Part shown: one piece after another, positions 624-51,333 of the stretch
How positions within the stretch are numbered: position 1 is the stretch's first letter
Layout: every line of letters begins with the position of its first letter
Source: Octopus vulgaris
Taxonomy: Eukaryota
DNA: 64,000 nt
Direction: 5' to 3'
NCBI GenBank assembly: GCA_951406725.2
Contig: OX597817.1
Span: forward strand, 62,682,001-62,746,000
Program-made: the position numbers and the translations under genes
The notes under the pieces: generated by a model
What the model saw: only the letters and a program-made list of their open reading frames with translations
What the model was told of the DNA's origin: nothing
The model's database searches: none

Positions 624-1862
624 TTGTGTCATCCCATAAATAATGCGGTTTTTTTATACTTCTTTTATCTTTCAAAATTAAGGTAAACAATGCCTTTTTA
701 AATCTAAAATTTACTCTCCTTCATTTTCTACAATGCTCTACCATCTATGTGGTAGACGTGCAAGGCCCCTCTTCCAAAATTCACTTGTCCATGATGAAAA
801 ATATTCCCCCAGAACTGTTCTGACCTCGTCTATTTCTTCCGTCCAAATGATTTTCGAGACTGCAGAATAAATGATAATCAGATGGAGCAATGTCCGATGA
901 ATATTGTGGGTGGGGCAAGGTTTCCTATTCCAACTGCTCCAGCTTTTGGAATGACATCCTCGCTGCATGTGACCGAGCATAATCCTGATAGAAAAACACC
1001 TTTCGTCTTGAAACCAAAGATGGTCGTTTTTCTTCTAGTGCTGACTTAAACCACTCAAGCTATCTGCAGTAGATCTCCATTACTATATTTTGGTTTGGGC
1101 TTAAAAGTACAACGTGGATTAAACCTTTCATATCCCACCAAACAGATAGCAACACCTTACGTGGGTGACAACCTTCTTTAGCTTCGGGTGTCAGTGTTTC
1201 TCCTTTCCCTACCCACTGTCTTTGGCGCTTGACATTTTTATAGAGAACCCATTTGTCGTCGCCAGTCACTATTCGGTCCAAGAAGGTTCATTTGTGAGAC
1301 GTGCCAGCAAAGGAGAGAACACATTCACTCCCTGCGCGCAATTAGACTCGGAAAGTTTGTGAGGAACACATTGATCCAATTTGCAGACAATTCCGATGAC
1401 ACCCATGTGTCGATGAATGATTGAATGACCAAATGCAAGCTTCTCTGCTAGTTCCTCAACAGTTACAATGGAATTTTGTTCCACCAGGATTTGCAGGACA
1501 TCTTCATCGAACTCTACAGATCTTCCAGGACGAAGCGGCTCTTCTTGTTGGCTGTGGTTTCCGGCACTTACTTACGCTTATTGTCAGATCCCCATATACT
1601 GCATTAATATTCTTCTCATTTTCCGTTGCGTTGTTTCCTTTATTGAACTCATAAAGTAAAATATGCCGAATATGCTTCTTTATCACTTCCATTATAGCTC
1701 TTTCAAAATCGAACTGCACTCTTCAAAACTTACACTAAGAATAAGGACAAAGTAAAATTACTGCCTGCTTTTAAAATGAGTTGATGCAGGTAGTTTATCC
1801 CATCCTCCTCCGACTTTTAGTTTATGCAACTGAAAAAATGCATTATTTATGGGATGATACAA
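624..1862 (-). mobile_element. Full-length but decayed mariner (Tc1/mariner) DNA transposon
   Basis: TIRs ttgtgtcatcccataaataatgc (624) and gcattatttatgggatgatacaa (ends 1862). Frameshifted transposase pieces: HIRHILLYEFNKGNNATE, VTVEELAEKL..CVPHKLSE, DRIVTGDDKWVLYKN..HPRKVLLSVWWD. Confidence 0.92.
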
Positions 1863-1867
1863 CATAT

Positions 1868-2135
1868 ATAGGTTGCGGTGAATATAATGTCGTCTAAATT
1901 ACGCAAAAATGAAAATAACACTCACATTTCATTTTAACATATATATTCAACAACATTATATAAAAATATCGTGAAATACTAAAGAGTAAATCTATTCAAT
2001 AAAATTGCCATTGGCCTCAGCCACGGCCTCCAGACGACTCCGGAATCTCTTGCAACTCTTCTGGATGCTCTCCTTGTTGAAGTTGGTGAATATGGTCACA
2101 ATACTTGTCTTCAGTTCATCTTTGGTATTACAACG
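1868..2135 (-). mobile_element. 3' fragment of a Tc1/mariner-superfamily transposase
   Basis: Minus strand reads ..CNTKDELKTSIVTIFTNFNKESIQKSCKRFRSRLEAVAEANGNFIE*, a typical transposase C-terminus. Confidence 0.7.
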
Positions 2136-2305
2136 GCCACATTAAGGGACACAAACGCATTCGACATATTTCTTGAGAAGGGATGGTTTAAAGTTTATAG
2201 CTGAACATGACCAATTGAATAAAATAATATTTTAATTTTGTTTTGTTTCATTTTGTTTATTTTATTTGAAGTTGTATAAATTTCATTTCTGTAATCCCTT
2301 ATAAA

Positions 2306-2645
2306 ATGGCGATGCCACAAGAAAAGTATTTTATGTGCTGCAGTTTGAGAAATGCGAATCGATTGTGCAAATGCAACGTTAATTTCGCCGCTAATTCCAT
2401 AAAAAAACCACCTCGTCACTAGAAGATTTATAAATGGCATAAATATTTCACAGAAAAAGGTTGCATTTGTAAAGAAAAAAGCACCGATGCTCATGGTGTT
2501 CATGGTTCTCATGTTGACTGTATACTGCTATAAAATAAACTTAAAACCTTCTCCTGTCAAGAAATATATAAAATCTGTTTGTGTCTCTAACCATTTGTTT
2601 TAAAAATAAATTTAAAGTATGCTCTTTCTTTTTGAATAACCCCGT
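2306..2645 (+). mobile_element. Internally deleted Tc1-like (DUF4817-type N-terminal HTH) element
   Basis: Degenerate MAMPQEK..VLQFEKCESIVQMQR*FRR*FHKKPP..IYKWHKYFTEKGCICKEKS. Ends in a TIR-like ttttgaataaccccg followed by ta. Confidence 0.65.
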
Positions 2646-2889
2646 AAATATATATATATATACAAAATATGGGGGTTTAGTTCACAAGTGATCTAAATGA
2701 TTAGGTACGCTAAGTAAGTGGGGTAATGGATTACTAGGGCTCCAAGGTTATAACCGAGACGGTAGTTATGGAGCCTTTGCAGATTTTCCGATATAGCAGA
2801 TATATAATTGTTAAAGAGGACAATAAACGCTAAGTCAAGGCAAACATATCAAGTCATATACATTACTGTCATTGGAAAAAAATTCAAAT

Positions 2890-2943
2890 TCTTACAGCTG
2901 TTTCTGGGATATCCCAGAGTATGGGGTATTTCGTCATCAGAGA
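2890..2943 (-). ncRNA. Minimal type-I hammerhead ribozyme with degenerate stem II
   Basis: Reverse complement: tct CTGATGA c gaaatac-ccca tactc tggg-atatccc a GAAA cagctg TA aga. Confidence 0.65.
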
Positions 2944-3135
2944 CAAATATGGAAATGAGAAATTTATATCGTGACTTTTGAATATGGCCATTTGAATATG
3001 GCTAACCCCTAAGGGTGGATGCTACTGTATTTTGTAGCCCCAGGAAGATATCTCCTCCAGCTGGCTATAGACACACTATCTGTGCCCTATCAGTATGTGA
3101 AGGGAAGTCATCCTTCCCGTCTTCAACTTATGATA

Positions 3136-3180
3136 CACACGGACTCGAGTTTCAAGGTGTTTACCTTTCATCAGCGTGTG
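3136..3180 (-). ncRNA. Canonical minimal type-I hammerhead ribozyme
   Basis: Reverse complement: cacacg CTGATGA aaggt aaac acctt GAAA ctcgag TC cgtgtg. 6-bp stem I, 5-bp stem II, palindromic stem III, GUC cleavage triplet. Confidence 0.92.
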
Positions 3181-3247
3181 ACAATCATAGTTGTCGACGA
3201 GTAATAGTTGTGAAGGGAGCTGACTTCTCGTCGACAACTATGATTGT

Positions 3248-3292
3248 CACACGCTGATGAATGGTAAACACCTTGAAACTCGAGTCCGTGTG
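3248..3292 (+). ncRNA. Minimal type-I hammerhead ribozyme (mirror copy)
   Basis: cacacg CTGATGA atggt aaac acctt GAAA ctcgag TC cgtgtg. One stem II mismatch. Predicted cut after 3286. Confidence 0.88.
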
Positions 3293-3604
3293 TATCATAA
3301 GTTGAAGACGGGAAGGATGAATTCCCTTCACAAATACTGATAGGACACAGATAGTGTGTCTATAGCAAGCTGGAGGAGTTATCTTCCTGGGGCTACAAAC
3401 TACAGTAGCATCCACCCTTAGGGGTTAGCCATATTCAAATGGCAAATATGCGTCACGATGTGTTACCGCTACTGTTTATAACTCGCTCTGAGATTTATCA
3501 TTGAGAAATTTATAGATTAATGAAAAGACGACGTAGAGAACAGTAGTAAGGAAATAAGGAGAAGAAAAAAGAGAAGAAAAAAGAAGCATATATTTACGTT
3601 TTAG

Positions 3605-3662
<58 letters not shown>

Positions 3663-3699
3663 AATCGACCTGGCCTTCAGATGCTGTTACACATTGCTG

Positions 3700-3890
3700 G
3701 TCAAAATGCGCTTCCAATTTTGTCATAATTGCGCATTTCTCCATCACTCTGGAGCGTTCTTGAATTATCACATTTCGAATGTGCTTTCTTAGTGATATTT
3801 CTAGCATGGATCTAGTCACAGTCCTTCGCTTTGTAGCCAACAGATTTTCTGTCCTCTTCGTAACAGCCAGTTAGGACGGTGCTAAAACAA
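3700..3890 (-). mobile_element. RTE-clade LINE C-terminal fragment
   Basis: ..TVTRSMLEISLRKHIRNVIIQERSRV resembles the RTE ORF C-terminal MERSMLGISLRDHIRNE motif. Confidence 0.6.
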
Positions 3891-3937
3891 TACAGGTGTG
3901 TGTGTGCGTGTGTGTTATGTATGTATGTATATGTATG

Positions 3938-3996
<59 letters not shown>

Positions 3997-3997
3997 G

Positions 3998-4042
<45 letters not shown>

Positions 4043-4626
4043 GTATGTGTGTGTGTGTGTGAGTGTAATAAGTGAATAATTAATATATATGTTTAACAGG
4101 CACCCTTGTAGCTGTTTAATCATCCTTCAAGTTGTTGCTTTTACAATAGAATACCGTTCGATATCCTTCATTAAACGTGTGCCTAGATCGATAAATCCAT
4201 AATAAAAGACGTTTTCTTCGTGACCATATCATATTTCTTTTTGGCATTGAAGCTAGAGACTAAATTATGCAAAAGACCCTTCCATTTATGGAATGATATG
4301 GTGTCAATGTATCAGATATATTTTTTTATTTATTATGGTCCAACGTTCATTCGTTATTGTCTTCTTTAGTAATTAGTATTTCTTGTTTTCGTTTTTACTT
4401 TCTTTTGTGTATTAATTTATCTCTTCAAGATGTATTGTTCCGCTCCACAAAACAACGGTGAGTACATTTTGGGCGTTACTGCAATTTTCGCACCAGTGTT
4501 AATTGCATATATGTGTTTGTGTGTGCGTGCGTGTGCGTGTGCGTGTGTGAATGTGAGTGCGTGTGAGTGTGAGTGTGTGAGTATCTATACGTAAATGTAT
4601 ATAAATATGTGTATATATGTGTATCA

Positions 4627-7503: not shown

Positions 7504-8498
7504 ATGTGTGTGTGTGTGTACTAGATTACCCGTGACATGTTGGATCACTGACAATTCAGGTTATAAAACACTGAGGCTGATTTCAATATTGCTTTGAAAT
7601 GAAAGTTAATTTTATGATGATTCAATTCGTTCATGTCATCATAGGTCTGGTTTACAGGTTCATGCTTAAGGTTTTATTGATTATTTACAGCATCCAGTAG
7701 AAATAGAACTTCCGGGAGAAAACTGAACTCTAGTAACAGCATTTATTTATGGTATATGTGCACACTACTACAAAACTGGAAAAAGAAATTGTTATATAAC
7801 ATAAACATAAAATTGATAGAAACAATTTTACCATTTCAGGGCTATGTTACATTCGGAGTATTTTTCCATTATTAGATTACGTTTATAAAGAAATTTGTGG
7901 GAAAAATTTTTTCCGAGGGGTGGGGAGAAGAGTTTCGATAGACGGAGTTTGGGATCAGGAAATACCAAATAACATTTTTTTTTCCTTTTTTAAAAACCAC
8001 AGCTTTAGAAATTATGTGGGCAGGGAACATCTTTTTATGAAAATAAAGTTTAAAACAATTGTTTTTTTTGTACACCCTCATCATTCCACTCCAGACCGAT
8101 TTTGGCCAATTTTTATTGCGCTTCAAAACCATGGGACGATGAATAAAATATTATAAATAATGGATCAGAGGAAATTGAATGTGATAGTGACCACTTGACA
8201 TTGACCTAGTTCTCTCATCAAATAGTAGTAATTGGCATTTAGTAGTGACAATTGTTGTCTTCAACATGAATTCCTTTTATGGAGTTCTGAAACCCTCTTT
8301 ACCCCATTTCTACAATCAGAAAATCTTTATAGCTTACTTCTCCCTCTGGAACAACCAAATCTTAGTCAGTCAGTGGAGCGACTCCACTACCTCATATGTT
8401 CTTAAAATTTAAATCCACATCTTTGTCTATATATCTACCTTCTCTATAATGTTGCCACTTGATTTGAAAATTTTTGTATTAATGGAAAACCTCTATAA

Positions 8499-8584
8499 TT
8501 GGCTGATGAGTACTCAGCATCTTAAATCTGTTGTAATACTTACGACATTTAATAAAATGATGTAGTACGAAACGATCGTACCAA
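8499..8584 (+). ncRNA. Type-I hammerhead ribozyme with extended stem II
   Basis: ttgg CTGATGA gtact(ca)gcatc..gatgt agtac GAAA cgatcg TA ccaa. Core intact, palindromic stem III, GUA site, cut after 8580. Confidence 0.85.
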
Positions 8585-8725
8585 ATTACCGGAATCATTC
8601 TTGTTGCTTATTCTGATTATAATCACCCCACGGATTTTTATGGATAACACTATACAAGATTCTGGTGCATCTAAATTAAGTACCATATTCATTTGAATCT
8701 AAATTTTTGCTGAACATATATATAT

Positions 8726-20656: not shown

Positions 20657-20697
20657 TAAGAAAGTTGGTATGTGAAAGCACGTGGTTGAATATATAG

Positions 20698-21434
20698 AAA
20701 ATAGTAAAAAGTGAAAAAACTACAGAAGGCTTGTTTTAAAAGGTTAAAATATATATATTTGAGTCAATATGTCTGAAGAATGTTATAAATCTTTTTCTTC
20801 ATACAATGACATAGTATAGAAGAAATGACCGGTTTCGCGTTCAGCTTTTCAAATTTCTTAAAACGTTATGTTTACGTTGAGCGGTGATCTAGATAATAAG
20901 TGATTTCTTCCGGTATAAGGGAGATAATCCACGGGACTATCACTCAGACGTAGATGCACATTGCATCGACAACAGATTGCATTCCCAGAATACAGAATGA
21001 TACCCTTTAGTGAGCACATTGAGAAATGCGCAAAGCAACTACTACCACAATTTCTAATCTTTCCATTCTACCAATGTGCTATCGGAACACCAACACAAAT
21101 TAGACTAAACAAGGAAACATTCTTCCTTGAAAAATACAAGCCCAAACTTAACCATTCCAACATACTTATACAGAGAAACTCAATCCAAAAGAAAGGCAAA
21201 TAATTTTAAGCGATTATCTCCCTTACACCGGAAGGAATCACTTATTATCTAGATCACCGCTCAACGTAAACATAACGTTTTAAGAAATTTGAAAAGCTGA
21301 ACGCGAAACCGGTCATTTCTTCTATATTATGTCATTGTAGGAAAAAGATTTATAACATTCTTCAGACATATTGACTCAAATATATATTTTTTAACATTTT
21401 AAAACAAGCCTTCTGTAGTTTTTTCCCTTTTTAC

Positions 21435-21440
<6 letters not shown>
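20698..21440 (+). mobile_element. 5'-truncated Penelope-like element: inverted pLTR, GIY-YIG C-terminus, pLTR
   Basis: Inverted arms 20698-20929 and 21212-21440 enclose a GIY-YIG-type coding remnant. (TA)n tracts lie on both sides. Confidence 0.85.
20931..21203 (+). pseudogene. Penelope-type GIY-YIG endonuclease C-terminal fragment
   Basis: TGLSLRRRCTLHRQQI..FSEHIEKC..RLNKETFFLEKYKPKLN matches the TG.sL..R...H / E...I....P.LN pattern of PLE endonucleases. Confidence 0.8.
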
Positions 21441-21479
<39 letters not shown>

Positions 21480-28562: not shown

Positions 28563-29206
28563 GATAGATAGATTGTGTGTGTTGGTGTGTGTGTATGGTG
28601 TATGAAGGCAGGCATGGCTAAGATTTTAAGAATTTTGCTTTGCAAACTTGAGATCTGGTTTTGATCCGACTATATGGTATCTTGAACAGGCGTCTTTTAC
28701 TATTGCCTGAAGTTCGCTATGCCTGAAAACTAAATTATGGGATGGACAAAGGTGAGGTGCATTTGATCACCGTTCTATTGGATCTGAGCTGAGCTGTGAT
28801 ATAATAACATAAACAATTACCGGCATGTTTATACGTGTATGTTTGCGTGTGTATGCTTTTGTGTATGTGAATGTTGTTTGTGTATGTGAATGTTGTTTGT
28901 GCTTGTGTATGTGTGTGTGTGTGCACGCGCGTATGCAAGCTGCTGCTGCTATCACACTGCATACTAGAAATATCACTCGTTGTCAACATAAATTGCATGG
29001 CTGAAATCCCACGGCAATATTGAGAAAACGATTATTATAAATTATGTTTTGCAAACAGAAATATTATGATTTATCTTTTGCACATTATGCCGGTGGAACA
29101 CACATATGCACGAGAAGAGACGAACCTAGTATTACAATTTAACGCCACGTTTACCAATTATATTAGTGTTTACAAAGAACTATACTACCTCATATACATG
29201 CTTACG

Positions 29207-29634
29207 TATTTCTTTACTACCCACAAGGGGCTAAACACAGAGAGGACAAACAAGGACAGACAAACGGATTAAGTCGGTTATATCGACCCCAGTGCGTAAC
29301 TGGTACTTATTTAATCGACCCCGAAAAGGATGAAAGGCAAAGTCAACCTCGGCGGAATTTGAACTCAGAACGTAACGGCAGACGAAATACATATTTCTTT
29401 TCTACCCACAAAGAGCTAAACACAGAGAGTTCAAACAAGGACAGACAAACGGATTAAGTCGGTTATATCGATCCCAGTGCGTAACTGGTACTTAATTAAT
29501 CGACCCCGAAAAGGATGAAAGGCAAAGTCGACCTCGTCGGACCGCGGCGGAATTTGAAATCAGAACGTAGCGGCAGACGAAATACTGCTAAGCATTTCGC
29601 CCAGCGTGCTAACGATTCTGCCAGCTCGCCGCCT
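29207..29634 (-). mobile_element. SINE family A with internal tandem duplication
   Basis: Two copies of the core/tail unit, then the head ending ccagctcgccgcc. Confidence 0.85.
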
Positions 29635-38574: not shown

Positions 38575-39634
38575 GGCGTTAGCAATCGACTTTAGTGCCT
38601 TGGAAGAGGATCTCAAGCATAGTCGGAGTATCCTTACGCACAGTTTATAACATAAAAAAGAGAAAGGACATGAGCAACAGCATTCAGAGGAAGTCTGGCA
38701 GCAGTGGAGCCAACAAGAAACGAAATCAAGACTTCAACACCCTCAAGTCCAAAATTTCAACAGATACAACCACAACCATGAGGAAGCTGGCTTCTGAATT
38801 TGAAGCGGACCCCAAGACCATAAGAACAGCTGTGAATGATGACTACTCCAGGACACCAGGACACCGGCTGATAGAGGCAATGAAAGCCTGGAGACTGGAG
38901 AGATGCAAAAAGGTTCTCATATACTTAAAGAAGAACAGTTTCACTGAAAGTTTTCTGACGAAAAGATCTTCACAGTGGATGCTGTTCTGAACCACAGAAA
39001 TGATCAGTACATTGCGGAGTTAACAGCAGACGTCAGGAGCACCTTCAGAACAAAACTGGTCATGGATTTTGGTTTTGTGACCTCTGGCGGAAGAAAGATG
39101 CCCATCTGCTTATACAAGCCCGGAGAAAGAGTGGGTGCTGACGCCTACTACAAGACGCTGAGGTACCATGTCTTGCCGTGGCTCCAGACCGACTACCTAG
39201 AGGTCAACTATGTGTGGACCGAGGCTGGTACTTCCAGCCATATTGCCAAGAAGGTTAAGAATTTCTGCAAATCCAACTTTTCTGCTTTCTGGTCCGCGGA
39301 CTTCTGGCTTTCTTCCAGCCCGGATCTCAAGCCTCCGGACTATTCCGTGTGAGGCATTTTGGAGCATGCCACAACAAAATCTGACATTCCAACATCAACT
39401 CTCTGCAGGTTATCATCAATGAGGTGTGGGCCAGGATGTCCAGTGACTTTGTGGTGAAGAGTTGTGCAAGGTTCTGTGGAGGGTGTAATTGCAAACAATG
39501 GAAGCCACATAGATTACATTATTTATTTAGTAATTATATGCGAATGTTAACATAGTTATAAATTACTAAGCACGTTGAACAATAAGAGATTTCCAAGTGT
39601 TACAGCAATTTTGAATGTTTTCTTTCCCCACCCC

Positions 39635-45721: not shown

Positions 45722-45786
<65 letters not shown>

Positions 45787-46125
45787 ACAATTGAGGGTAA
45801 AATTAATTAATTAATCAATTTCACCAAGTGTTCAGTATGTAAAAGGACCATTTAAGGCGAATTCAAAATATTACATTATATAATTAGGGCTTAGTAAAAT
45901 AAATTACTTTGCCACATACTGAACTTAGTAGAAATAGCAGCCAAAAATTTTCTTAGCATTTCTACTACTTAAAGAAAATTTCTCTCAGATAATGTTTACT
46001 CCAGACAGTTCACGAAGGTTTGGGGGTAAATACAGAAAAATATCGGAGTGGTTCATCTGAAGCGACAACTTCGCTGATAGGTAAAGTTCCTTCTTTTTAG
46101 TGTTTCCAAATCCAAATTAAGAAAT

Positions 46126-46188
46126 TTTGAGCTGACGAAAGAAATGCTAATTTTATTTGGCTAATCTTGAAACGTTAACGTACTCAAA
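46126..46188 (+). ncRNA. Canonical type-I hammerhead ribozyme, tandem copy 1
   Basis: tttgag CTGACGA aaga aatgctaattttatttggctaa tctt GAAA cgttaacg TA ctcaaa. Predicted cut after 46182. Confidence 0.92.
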
Positions 46189-46688
46189 CGATCTATGTAC
46201 TTGTGATATTTTTCTGTATTTACCCCCAAACCTTCGTGAGCTGTCTGGAGTAAACATTATCTGAGAGAAATTTTCTTTAAGTAGTAGAAATGCTAAGAAA
46301 ATTTTTTGGCTGCTATTTCTACTAAGTTCAGTATGTGGCAAAGTAATTTATTTTACTAAGCCCTAATTATATAATGTAATATTTTGAATTCGCCTTAAAT
46401 GGTCCTTTTACATACTGAACACTTGGTGAAATTGATTAATTAATTAATTTTACCCTCAATTGTTGATATTATAATTCATTTCTCTCGGTCATACTGCCTC
46501 GGTTCTCGCGGTTAAAATATAATGTTTGCTGGATAGACCACGTGGGTGGAATGGGGAGTGCAGAATTTTACGCCTGCGCATTTTGAATTTGTTGACACTG
46601 TTTAGTCGGAGTGGTTCATCTGAAGCGACAACTTCGCTGATAGGTAAAGTTCCTTCTTTTTAGTGTTTCCAAATCCAAATTAAGAAAT

Positions 46689-46751
46689 TTTGAGCTGACG
46701 AAAGAAATGCTGATTTTATTTGGCTAATCTTGAAACGTTAACGTACTCAAA
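46689..46751 (+). ncRNA. Canonical type-I hammerhead ribozyme, tandem copy 2
   Basis: Same as copy 1 with one loop substitution. Predicted cut after 46745. Confidence 0.92.
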
Positions 46752-46936
46752 CGATCTATGTACTTGTGATATTTTTCTGTATTTACCCCCAAACCTTCGT
46801 GAGCTGTCTGGAGTAAACATTATCTGAGAGAAATTTTCTTTAAGTAGTAGAAATGCTAAGAAAATTTTTTGGCTGCTATTTCTACTAAGTTCAGTATGTG
46901 GCAAAGTAATTTATTTTACTAAGCCCTAATTATATA

Positions 46937-46985
<49 letters not shown>

Positions 46986-47118: not shown

Positions 47119-47289
47119 GGGGGTATTTGTATAGGGTACAATTATACTTAAGGCTACAGAAGATACCATGTCTATATATTGAATGTAGACGCCAAGAACG
47201 TTGAACCACTGTAGATATTCACTCCACGCATGTACAATTGTTGAAAGCGGAAAGCAAACTGACTAATAATTCATAAAATAATTCAGACA

Positions 47290-47346
47290 GTTTTGGATCG
47301 ATTAATTTCTGGGTTAGTTTGATAACTTTTCCTTCATCAGCAAAAC
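47290..47346 (-). ncRNA. Hammerhead-like motif inside a small inverted-repeat element (arms ~47212-47278 and 47523-47589)
   Basis: Reverse complement: gttttg CTGATGA a ggaaaagttatcaaactaaccc a GAAA ttaatcga TC caaaac. 6-bp stem I, stems II and III partly decayed. Confidence 0.6.
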
Positions 47347-47714
47347 ATACAGAGTGAAATAAATGAAAATATTTATACATACCCACAGAAAAGCACACGC
47401 AAAATGAGAGTACATACAAACATTCACAAATATATAAGCATCGAATTTCGCAGTCCACCTCAACACATGTGTACTTCGTCAGAATACTACAGAAGTAAAT
47501 AAACTGACCCGAAGTGAATTAATTTATGAATTTTTAGTCAGTCTGCTTTCCCGCTTTCAACCTATGTATATAAGTGGAGTCAATATCTGCAACACACACA
47601 CACAAACACAATTCAATTAGATGTTAAATTGGCTTCATTTTTTATTAAATTAGATATTCCAGTTTCTTACTTTCCTTTGAATAACCTTGGTTTGTACATA
47701 ACTCTATTGTTTTA

Positions 47715-47781
<67 letters not shown>

Positions 47782-47784
<3 letters not shown>

Positions 47785-48455
47785 GGGTTGGACAAAATAA
47801 TGGAAACATTAAAAATTCAATCGAATTTATTTTAATATGGGTAGGACACCCTTTGACGGTAATTACAGCTTGAATTCTATGAGGTATGGACTCATACAAA
47901 GTTTTAATTATTTCCAAAGCAATATTTGTCCATTCTTCAGCTAAAACAGTCTCCAGTTCTTGTAGTGATGATGGTGGTGGATATCGACTCCTTACTTGTT
48001 TTTCTAAAATGCACCATAAATGTTCAATAATATTGAGATCTGGGGACTGTGGTGGCCAGATAAGATGTTCAACTTTACTAGAATTTTACTAGCGCCATTC
48101 AGTAACAATTTTAGCTGTGTGAATTGGTGCATTATCATCCTGAAAGATTGCGTTTCACTCCGGAAACAGTTCCGCGACCATAAGATAAATCTGATCAGAT
48201 GAAATGCTTAAATAGTCCTGACTATTAATTTTGCCATGAAGGGAAACCATTGGGCCGGCGGATTTCCAAGATATAGCCCTCACCCACCCCAGATCATCAC
48301 AGATCCTCCTCCATGTTTAACAGTCGGAAAAAGGCAGTCTGGGTCAAATGCTTCTTTTGGCTGTCTCCACACGTATACTCGACCGGTGGTCGGAAATATG
48401 GTAAAGGATGACACGTCCGAAAAAATAACATTCTTCCACTGCTCTAGAGACCAAT
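47782..48455 (-). mobile_element. Tc1 transposon 3' half
   Basis: TIR caggggttggacaaaataatggaaaca after TA. Minus strand reads WPPQSPDLNIIEHLWC and LYESIPHRIQAVITVKGCPT. Truncated by a family B SINE. Confidence 0.88.
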
Positions 48456-48571
48456 TAGTACTTATTCTATCGATAACTTTGCCGAACCCCTAATTCACGG
48501 GGATATAAGCACACCAACATCGGTTGTCAAGCGATGATGGTGGGACAAACACAGACACACACAGACACACA

Positions 48572-49518: not shown

Positions 49519-49933
49519 AGGCGGCGAACTGACAGAATCGTCAGCACGCCGGACGAAATGCGTAACCGTATTTCGTCTGCCGTTACGTTCTGAGTTCAAA
49601 TTCCGCTGAGGTCGACTTTGCTTTTCATCCTTTCGGGGTCGATAAATTAAGTACCAGGTACGCACTGGGGTCGATGTAATCGACTTAATCCGTTTGTCTG
49701 TCCTTGTTTGTCCTCTCCGTGTTTAGCCCCTTGTGGGTAATAAAGAAATAAGTATTTCGTCTGCCGTTACGTTCTGAGTTCAAATTCCGCTGAGGTCGAC
49801 TTTGCCTTTCATCCTTTTGGGGTCGATAAATTAAGTACCAGTTACGCACTGGGGTCGATATAATCGACTTAATCCGTCTGTCTCTCCTTGTTTGTCTCCT
49901 CTGTGTTTAGCCCCTTGTGGGTAGTAAAGAAAT
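49519..49933 (+). mobile_element. SINE family A with internal tandem duplication
   Basis: Head plus two ~180-bp core/tail units. Confidence 0.88.
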
Positions 49934-51333
49934 AGAAATATAAAAGCTTATATATTTATGGTATTTAAATTCTTAGGGTAAATACTGTTCACCCTCTTGT
50001 CCAAAGAAATCGGTTTATAGATCTGAGTCAATGGAAGCTCCGGGGAATTCTTCGGAATCATCCTTGATTTCTGAAACAGGCACAAATGCCTCAAACTGAG
50101 GGGAGGGAACAACTGATTACATCGACTTATTTTAACGATCTCCGAAGGAATGAAAAATGAAGTTAACATCAACGGTAAATGAAAGCAGATCCTAAAGAGC
50201 TAGAATTAAAGAATTCGGAATATTCTCTACAATTCACTTGTGAAACAGTAAAGTTATTTTATGCTCACCATCAACAACATGCAAGCGCCATGCGATGTCA
50301 ATCGCGTTCTTCTCATTCCACCTGCCTGTTCAGATGAAAGTTAACCTTACTCTAACTTTTGATTTGATAAGGGACTTTTTGAGCCGAAATATCATTATAT
50401 AAGGAAGTGTAATCTTTTGAGTTTGGTTGCGTTTTCACTTCTTTATTGCTCGGAAAAAGTTAGATAAACAGACTGGCGAAGAATTAAAAAGATAGATATA
50501 GATATAGATATATGCAAACGCACATACACACACACACATACTCATACACACACACACACACACACACACACTCATACACACACATGTATACATATATGTA
50601 TATATACATATATACATGTGTATATACGTATGTGATTTCTCATTATTGCGAGGTGAATGGACTGGAGCAACGTGAAATGAAGTGTTTTGCTTGCTCAAGA
50701 AGACAACACATAACACAGTCCAGAAATCGAAGTCACAATCTTACATTCAAGAGAACAACAAACAAAAGACAGGTCCACGCACCTCCAATCACACATACGT
50801 ACATGCATACATATATACATATGTATTTATGTATATATATATATATATATGTGTGTGTATGTATGTATGTATGTATGTATATATATGCATATATTCACAC
50901 ACACATAGAGTACCTTCGATCTACATTCCAAGAGGAAGATTAATTTCATTCCGATATTTGGAAAATCTCAAATGCTGAATAACACTGCTTAAAAACTTGG
51001 AACTTTCTCTGTGTGTGTGTGTGTGTGTGTGTGTCTGTGTGAATGTGTGTGTGCGCGTGTGTGTGTGTGCATGTGTGTGTGCATGTGTGTGTGCATGTGT
51101 GTGTATGTTTCTCTGAGTATGATCGTGTATGTGTGCGTTTTCGCGTTTGTGTGTGTATGTGTGTGTCTGTATATATTTATTCATATATGCATAAATATAT
51201 ATATATATATGTATTTACACATACATATACATATAGGTGTTTGTACGTATGTATGTATGTATGTATCTATTACGTATGTATGTATGTATATTAGACCCCT
51301 TTTTGTATCTCCTTCGCTTCCCAAATTCTCTAA

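Follow-up and report, generated by a model that had tools for sequence, protein, structure and literature searches.

Organization of the element

The element under study occupies positions 45781 to 46938 of the window (the whole analysed stretch of 64,000 nucleotides from Octopus vulgaris, contig OX597817.1) and lies between two (TA)n target microsatellites, at 45725-45784 on the left, where TA-like bases blur the element boundary, and at 46939-46981 on the right; no target-site duplication is readable inside the repeat. It consists of two arms in head-to-head orientation, for which a common numbering is used, with unit position 1 placed at window position 46183, the nucleotide immediately downstream of the first predicted cut, and position 563 at 46745. 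The direct arm (46043-46938, plus strand) comprises 1.6 tandem units, running from a 5' truncation at unit position 424 to start site I (position 193) at its 3' end, and it appears as a direct repeat of 333 bp (46043-46375 and 46606-46938) with a spacing of 563 and one mismatch (46149/46712). The inverted arm (45781-46044, minus strand) is the reverse complement of 46205-46469 apart from one substitution and one 1-nt gap; it copies unit positions 23-287, and its outer end corresponds to start site II and carries a 94-nt tail. The two arms overlap by a 2-nt TC microhomology at their junction (46043-46044). Near-identical direct copies, a 264-bp inverted upstream copy with a TC junction and (TA)n on both flanks had all been described in the original prediction, and all are present.

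The 563-nt monomer between the predicted cut sites (46183-46745, plus strand) is non-coding with 34% GC, and the longest stop-free run of the unit, read as a circle, extends over 46 codons on the plus strand and 64 on the minus strand, which agrees with the earlier reading that there is no meaningful ORF. As a circle the monomer is predicted to be 66% paired, with a folding energy of -152.6 kcal/mol and a z score of -5.9 relative to 40 shuffles. Its conserved structured 3' domain (46280-46469) includes start site I (46375) and start site II (46469), which are separated by the 94-nt tail (46376-46469), and contains a helix between 46327-46336 and 46410-46419 as well as a hairpin at 46425-46454. 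The window element is a recent insertion of a 563-base repeat that is both abundant and non-coding. An origin from a Pol III transcript or tRNA-derived SINE was considered and rejected, as no tRNA gene was found; moreover, runs of T terminate transcription by Pol III, and the presence of three runs of five or more T within the unit makes a Pol III promoter unlikely.

Hammerhead motifs

Two type-I hammerheads exactly 563 nt apart were predicted originally, and both full layouts were found on the plus strand, at 46126-46188 with a predicted cut after 46182 and at 46689-46751 with a predicted cut after 46745. In each 63-nt motif stem I is 6 bp long, the core reads CUGACGA, stem II is bulged, GAAA is present, stem III is palindromic, and the cut triplet is GUA. 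The palindromic stem III claimed for both motifs is therefore real, but the Rfam search that was suggested along with it detects neither of them: nothing in the window reached the gathering score, and no hammerhead family was reported even at E<=10, so that the assignment rests on the core and on covariation. The perfect stem III palindrome CGTTAACG, present in both window units, is a minority allele seen in 10 of 148 junctions, a count that includes copies deliberately picked for this palindrome, and CGTTGACG, which is still self-complementary by means of G-U pairs, is found in 129 of the 148.

For stems I and II, 9 of the 12 counted pairs vary on both sides among 11 sequences across families. 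The whole hammerhead structure is 95.5% paired in these sequences, compared with 30-45% in slid controls and with none of 500 shuffles reaching this value; the latter figure is not a probability, given the kinship of the sequences and the fact that one of them supplied the structure. In the core, C3-G8 is replaced by U3-A8 in distant families (L236, L253), a covariation already known in hammerheads of Penelope-like elements (PLEs; PMC4209133). Stem III is wholly self-complementary, barring G-U pairs, in families A, A2, C and D and imperfect in some distant copies, and stem II contains a conserved internal loop. Judging from these patterns of substitution, the hammerhead is under selection.

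An isolated hammerhead is predicted to favour an inactive fold (-10.9 versus -7.2 kcal/mol), and a stem III duplex is predicted at -11.6; the misfolding of the single motif together with the stability of the duplex would fit cleavage as a dimer. The minimal PLE hammerheads described in PMC4209133 are similar in that their short palindromic stem III suits dimer cleavage and in the C3-G8 to U3-A8 swap, but the motifs studied here differ from that description in having a 6-bp stem I, a long stem II with the conserved internal loop and a first stem II pair that is often not G-C. Dimers of Xenopus retrozymes showed no cleavage in vitro in 8 of 9 cases, as reported in the available part of a recent preprint (bioRxiv 10.64898/2026.07.22.740005). 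Five genomic copies begin within 3 nt of the cut site and two at a control site, an excess that is not significant (p=0.23), and the genomic ends accordingly give no sign of in vivo cutting.

Other hammerheads were noticed in the same window. A 460-bp near-perfect palindrome at 2987-3443 has at its centre a head-to-head pair of hammerhead motifs, each with a palindromic stem III, and probably represents the short insertion of a further PLE-type family. At 8497-8720 there is a solo hammerhead with a long stem II and a palindromic stem III, ending shortly before a (TA)n tract; similar solo motifs occur at L237:3140 (-), L253:1488 (-) and L147:2607 (+), and they represent additional hammerhead families without sequence kinship to the 563-nt element.

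Distribution of the family in the genome

Three exact patterns gave 8, 409 and 7,920 genomic matches, and their reversed controls gave 0. The 409 are exact 18-mer matches to unit positions 1-18, and such hundreds of dispersed copies exclude the one-off local duplication that had been named as a possible refutation. A similarity search of the genome (G000, 2.8 Gb) returned at least 146 matches to the unit, with 40 of 2,035 candidates scored. Sixty loci, sampled in the order of listing among the first 100 18-mer matches and excluding those sampled before, are 92-98% identical to the window unit; a (TA)n tract adjoins 58 of 59 loci and is found on both sides in 48. Overlapping entries were left out, namely L044, a segmental duplicate of L043, and L015-L017, L032, L033 and L037, which overlap other loci. 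DNA contigs from three organisms carry the family at a depth far above that of the flank, and contigs examined for empty insertion sites break at the TA tracts. Contigs from four runs that we guess to be RNA also cover the unit, with a depth profile like that of the DNA runs and hence uninformative on level, strand or circles.

Relaxed searches revealed sister families, designated B (with GUU as the cut triplet), A2 (unit of ~545 nt), C (~595 nt) and D, and beyond these there are more families that were seen only as partial copies. Family C is collinear with the window unit along its entire length, unit periods range from 545 to 597 nt in A2, B and C, and arms in family A reach 3.6 units. The families have diverged widely, and those read across a whole unit are non-coding, with covarying hammerhead stems. 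Positions ~95 to 287 are best conserved, with ~90% identity between A and A2 and far lower values in other regions, and they fold into helices with some covariation; this structured 3' domain is likely to serve as a handle for the PLE protein. A motif common to most families accounts for the 7,920 matches, and a superfamily of this size that is invisible to Rfam is easily misfiled in repeat annotations. Ribozymes and retrozymes are not mentioned in the available text of an octopus repeat-annotation paper (PMC13282606).

A long array was found in family A2 at L254 (G000:C1:33098500-33108400), where 11 hammerheads are present, ten units form an unbroken tandem, and eight of nine full units are identical. 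An 807-bp duplication at this locus takes in the 5' flank as well, which together with the array itself points to expansion at the DNA level there; the array represents either a local expansion or an assembly effect.

Insertion ends and pairing of the arms

The 5' ends of the copies are scattered, and their 3' ends fall at two fixed sites 94 nt apart, position 193 being used in 31 of 62 site-I ends and position 287 in 51 of 62 site-II ends. As both start sites are TA-like, the exact end base is blurred by a few nucleotides. Freely circularly permuted copies, which had been anticipated, are thus replaced by copies with two fixed 3' ends. Inverted insertions account for 34 of the 59 unselected loci, with 26 pairing one end at site I and the other at site II, one having both ends at site II and seven having one end elsewhere; 16 of the 32 selected loci are inverted as well, 12 of them with the I+II pairing and four with one end elsewhere. 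The I+II combination is consequently seen in 38 of 39 classifiable inverted loci (26/27 unselected and 12/12 selected), for which p is about 7e-11 under the assumption of independent and equally likely ends, and one outer end lies at neither start site in 11 of all 50 inverted family-A loci. The same pairing holds for 9/9, 7/7 and 9/9 inverted loci in families B, C and D (among 22, 30 and 20 loci, respectively), counting only loci where the pattern recognised both arms. Furthermore, a short site-II stub is present on the far flank in 7 of 23 loci classified as direct with a site-I end, as is predicted if both DNA ends act as primers.

These observations suggest that each cut DNA end primes reverse transcription, one per start site. 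Both cDNAs would be antisense and inward-pointing and could be joined by microhomology, which gives exactly the layout of the window element. The inverted arm had originally been ascribed to a reverse transcriptase (RT) running past one monomer, but priming from the second DNA end explains it better. According to the part of the anole PLE study available to us (PMC11167929), the PLE tail marks two internal RT start sites, and the protein, a predicted dimer, extends both DNA strands; a tail confined to one end is already known from PLEs (PMC8557442, PMC3846280).

Head-to-head PLE inversions have previously been attributed to self-priming on antisense RNA (PMC3846280, in the text available). The near-strict assignment of one arm to each start site, which a coding PLE likewise displays, would provide a simple account of them from a sense template, and it predicts precisely what the existing in vitro assay for PLEs should give. 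A broader proposal, which we put forward tentatively and do not hold to be the likelier outcome, is that PLE integration is an obligate twin priming, in which an enzyme dimer would cut the (TA)n tract and the two ends would start cDNA synthesis from a single circular RNA, each at a separate fixed site, with the consequence that inverted arms, one-sided tails and tandem pLTRs would be products of a single reaction; the superfamily would then be a long-lived parasite that keeps the structural handle only, with no sequence match to any PLE. If this were true, the 563-nt element would constitute a minimal substrate for testing the entire PLE cycle.

Coding Penelope-like elements

A coding PLE is present in the genome, with a product of 781 aa that contains RT and GIY-YIG domains and a Neptune-like cysteine linker; it is inserted in (TA)n, its two 3' ends lie about 39 nt apart, and all 8 inverted insertions found among the first 100 of 801 listed matches have one tailed arm. 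As its frame is complete in many copies, this family looks active. Its members have a second open frame, 333-359 codons long between stops, which begins just after the tail and precedes the RT ORF (L130:406-1482, where the 781-aa ORF lies at 1745-4087, and L131:744-1742), and upstream frames resembling it were noticed at L132, L140 and L143. An inverted PLE remnant also lies within the window (20690-21450), with a GIY-YIG fragment at 20931-21152 and a U3-A8 hammerhead in each arm (20852 on the minus strand and 21289 on the plus strand); a tail of ~40 nt is found on its left arm only, the same asymmetry as in the 563-nt element.

An autonomous PLE sharing the pLTR, for which a genome search had been suggested, was not found, with no partner sharing the 3' domain or pLTR among 50 stretches selected for GIY-YIG (L099-L148, partly overlapping) and 35 further superfamily loci; the GIY-YIG survey was shallow, with 150 of 6,136 candidates scored. 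Comparison of the unit with the 50 PLE stretches (blastn, word 7, E<0.01) gave no PLE-linked DNA similarity, tblastn of PLE proteins against 98, 30, 50 and 35 superfamily loci gave no coding element with a matching 3' domain, and neither relaxed hammerhead patterns nor DNA searches with the distant families C and D yielded a coding partner. Remnants of PLE ORFs were detected inside six of the 98 family loci; they derive from several families that are unrelated to one another and have no sequence in common with the unit, and in none of these 98 loci does a PLE ORF run into the unit. One hammerhead element on the minus strand of L102 (near 690) has short 3' motifs resembling those of the superfamily 3' domain and an end ~203 nt past the cut site; it is a possible distant relative and a lead to the partner.

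Mode of propagation and nature of the template

The locus is probably best explained as a recent insertion of a non-coding hammerhead repeat that is dispersed in the genome, is arranged in tandem and ends at either of two fixed 3' sites. It is likely to be a non-LTR retrozyme dependent on the RT/endonuclease of a Penelope-like element acting in trans, and the template would probably be a 563-nt RNA that has cut itself and closed into a circle. In the proposed cycle, a plus-strand transcript would be made from an insertion carrying two hammerheads, and these would cut the transcript, likely as a dimer held by the palindromic stem III, after which a host ligase may close the monomer, as it does in known retrozymes. 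The PLE protein would then bind the structured 3' domain and cut a (TA)n tract; the target bias is observed, and the enzyme is the presumed agent. Each of the two DNA 3' ends would prime a cDNA, one at site I (193) and the other at site II (287), matching the observed pattern of ends. The RT may pass the cut-site junction for a variable length, and joining of the two cDNAs by microhomology would produce head-to-head arms; where one cDNA is very short, the insertion would appear direct.

As regards the template, 147 of 148 cut-site junctions are without an indel. Copies read through the cut site and few start there, so that a cut linear monomer with RT fall-off is not the main template. Within 309 indel-free columns from 91 loci, a common variant was carried by every overlapping unit of its locus in 79 instances and by only some of the units in 5, and private variants were found in all units of a locus in 16 cases (9 loci, 3 across both arms) and in some units in 75; without the indel-free filter the shared private variants numbered 34, from 15 loci. 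At position 451, what seemed to be an inherited difference between units in L008-L010 proved to be an alignment artefact and was discarded. Seven long loci from A2 and close relatives have 0-4 differing positions within a locus and 6-60 between loci. This sharing of variants by the units of a locus indicates that one sequence was copied repeatedly per insertion, as a circle would give, but the same pattern could arise from a homogeneous array transcribed without cutting, from exact template jumps or from gene conversion. Given the rest of the explanation, we consider the circle step itself reasonably probable; circles are known to be formed by retrozymes (PMC7229834).

It is also conceivable, albeit unlikely in our judgement, that the same element is copied by the same PLE enzyme from a linear template, either an uncut multimer or a monomer with exact template jumps, and that cutting is rare or late and circles are irrelevant to its spread. 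The cut site is read through in nearly all copies, with 5 starting within 3 nt of it as against about 409 that contain positions 1-18, arrays of identical units such as that at L254 exist, stem III is weak as a monomer, and the anole PLE, the only one studied in vitro, mainly used uncut RNA as its template (PMC11167929). However, with random 5' truncation a daughter copy would be no longer than its source, and many lineages would therefore need a step that rereads one unit in order to persist. Every unit of each long locus carries the haplotype of that locus, with few differences within loci and many between them, and the catalytic core is conserved, with covariation. Template jumps often leave indels at junctions, and the junctions here are without them.

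Propagation as a satellite-like repeat at the DNA level, through unequal exchange, extrachromosomal circles or a Helitron-like rolling circle and with a relic hammerhead, is very improbable: the L254 array with its duplicated 5' flank does indicate local expansion, but the dispersed copies, fixed 3' ends, random 5' ends, head-to-head arms and a tail asymmetry as in the coding PLE largely refute such a mechanism for dispersal, and the hammerhead stems covary. Least credible of all is that the copies are 5'-truncated ends (pLTRs) of a coding PLE with the 563-nt spacing as a mere local partial tandem, since, despite an anatomy of PLE ends and the PLE ORF remnants in six of the family loci, these remnants come from unrelated families with nothing in common with the unit, all long copies re-enter the same non-coding unit upstream of the hammerhead, and no copy was seen in which hammerhead and 3' domain lead upstream into an RT/GIY-YIG ORF. 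The tandem copies thereby also answer the earlier concern that the unit might be simply the 3' end of a coding PLE, and the original proposal of a non-autonomous, microsatellite-associated PLE parasite of the retrozyme type is supported by the family and by its insertion anatomy.

Relation to known retrozymes and Penelope-like elements

The retrozyme reading, in which a circular RNA is the probable source of the copies, can be compared with several known systems. Like metazoan non-LTR retrozymes (PMC7229834), the element is organised as non-coding, low-GC (34%, below 50%) head-to-tail units, each with one type-I hammerhead and at least two intact ones in tandem, and its small monomer is predicted to be highly self-paired; PLEs coexist in the genome. 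In that study, as far as its text was available, PLEs were proposed as the mobiliser of retrozymes (Cervera and de la Pena 2020, PMC7229834). The retrozymes described there have units of 150-450 nt, whereas that of the octopus element measures 563 nt, inside the range of 51-972 bp given elsewhere (bioRxiv 10.64898/2026.07.22.740005), and most of its copies are short insertions, dispersed and with inverted arms, that have two fixed 3' ends and lie in (TA)n targets, features that were not encountered in the available text of the 2020 study; in addition, cleavage and circles were demonstrated for those retrozymes and are predicted for the 563-nt element. The same overall conclusion, that retrozymes are non-autonomous PLE derivatives, was reached by Li, Clavereau and Pollet (bioRxiv 10.64898/2026.07.22.740005), whose argument, in the text available, is based on co-occurrence and pLTR homology, mainly in vertebrates, in contrast to the insertion anatomy used here, where no homologous pLTR was found.

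With EN+ PLEs (Craig et al. 2021, PMC8557442; Arkhipova et al. 2013, PMC3846280; Frangieh et al. 2024, PMC11167929) the element has in common partial tandems, 5' truncation, a head-to-head inverted arm, a one-ended tail, an AT-rich target, here (TA)n, and a hammerhead upstream of two 3' ends. Unlike the elements described in those sources, and unlike any autonomous PLE, it has no RT/GIY-YIG ORF, and its tail measures 94 nt rather than 30-40. Its start sites, 193 and 287 nt past the cut site, are TA-like, so that pairing with the primer may help, whereas those of the anole PLE are non-homologous to the target (PMC11167929). MRC1 and other non-autonomous Chlamys PLEs (PMC8557442) resemble it in being non-autonomous, in having pLTRs and in forming multicopy head-to-tail insertions; these non-autonomous Chlamys PLEs, however, generally match an autonomous family at the 3' end, for which no counterpart was found among the PLE stretches surveyed here, and their clade is described, in the portion of that paper available, as lacking canonical hammerheads.

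The element is therefore likely a non-LTR retrozyme behaving as a non-autonomous PLE, with self-cleavage and a circle as predicted properties. Its insertion anatomy is unusually clear, but the class is known, as a link between retrozymes and PLEs was already proposed (PMC7229834; bioRxiv 10.64898/2026.07.22.740005, both from available text); what appears to be new is a direct anatomical sign of PLE mobilisation, the 94-nt tail, the conserved structured handle and the arm-pairing rule. In the literature searched, neither the tail, the handle, the arm-pairing rule and this family nor a twin-priming model for PLEs was found; subscription papers, Repbase/Dfam and preprint supplements lay outside that search, and the family may be catalogued there. 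The movement of retrozymes has so far been argued through co-occurrence and pLTR homology, and hundreds of young insertions with a PLE integration signature tie the two directly.

Several other repeats were noticed in the window. A repeated, MITE-like element with 77-bp imperfect terminal inverted repeats lies at 47210-47591. Broken frames at 38583-39352 and 47645-48493 look like Tc1/mariner transposases when their motifs are judged by eye. A related repeat of 184-185 bp, SINE-like in appearance, forms two tandem dimers, at 29203-29541 and 49568-49934.
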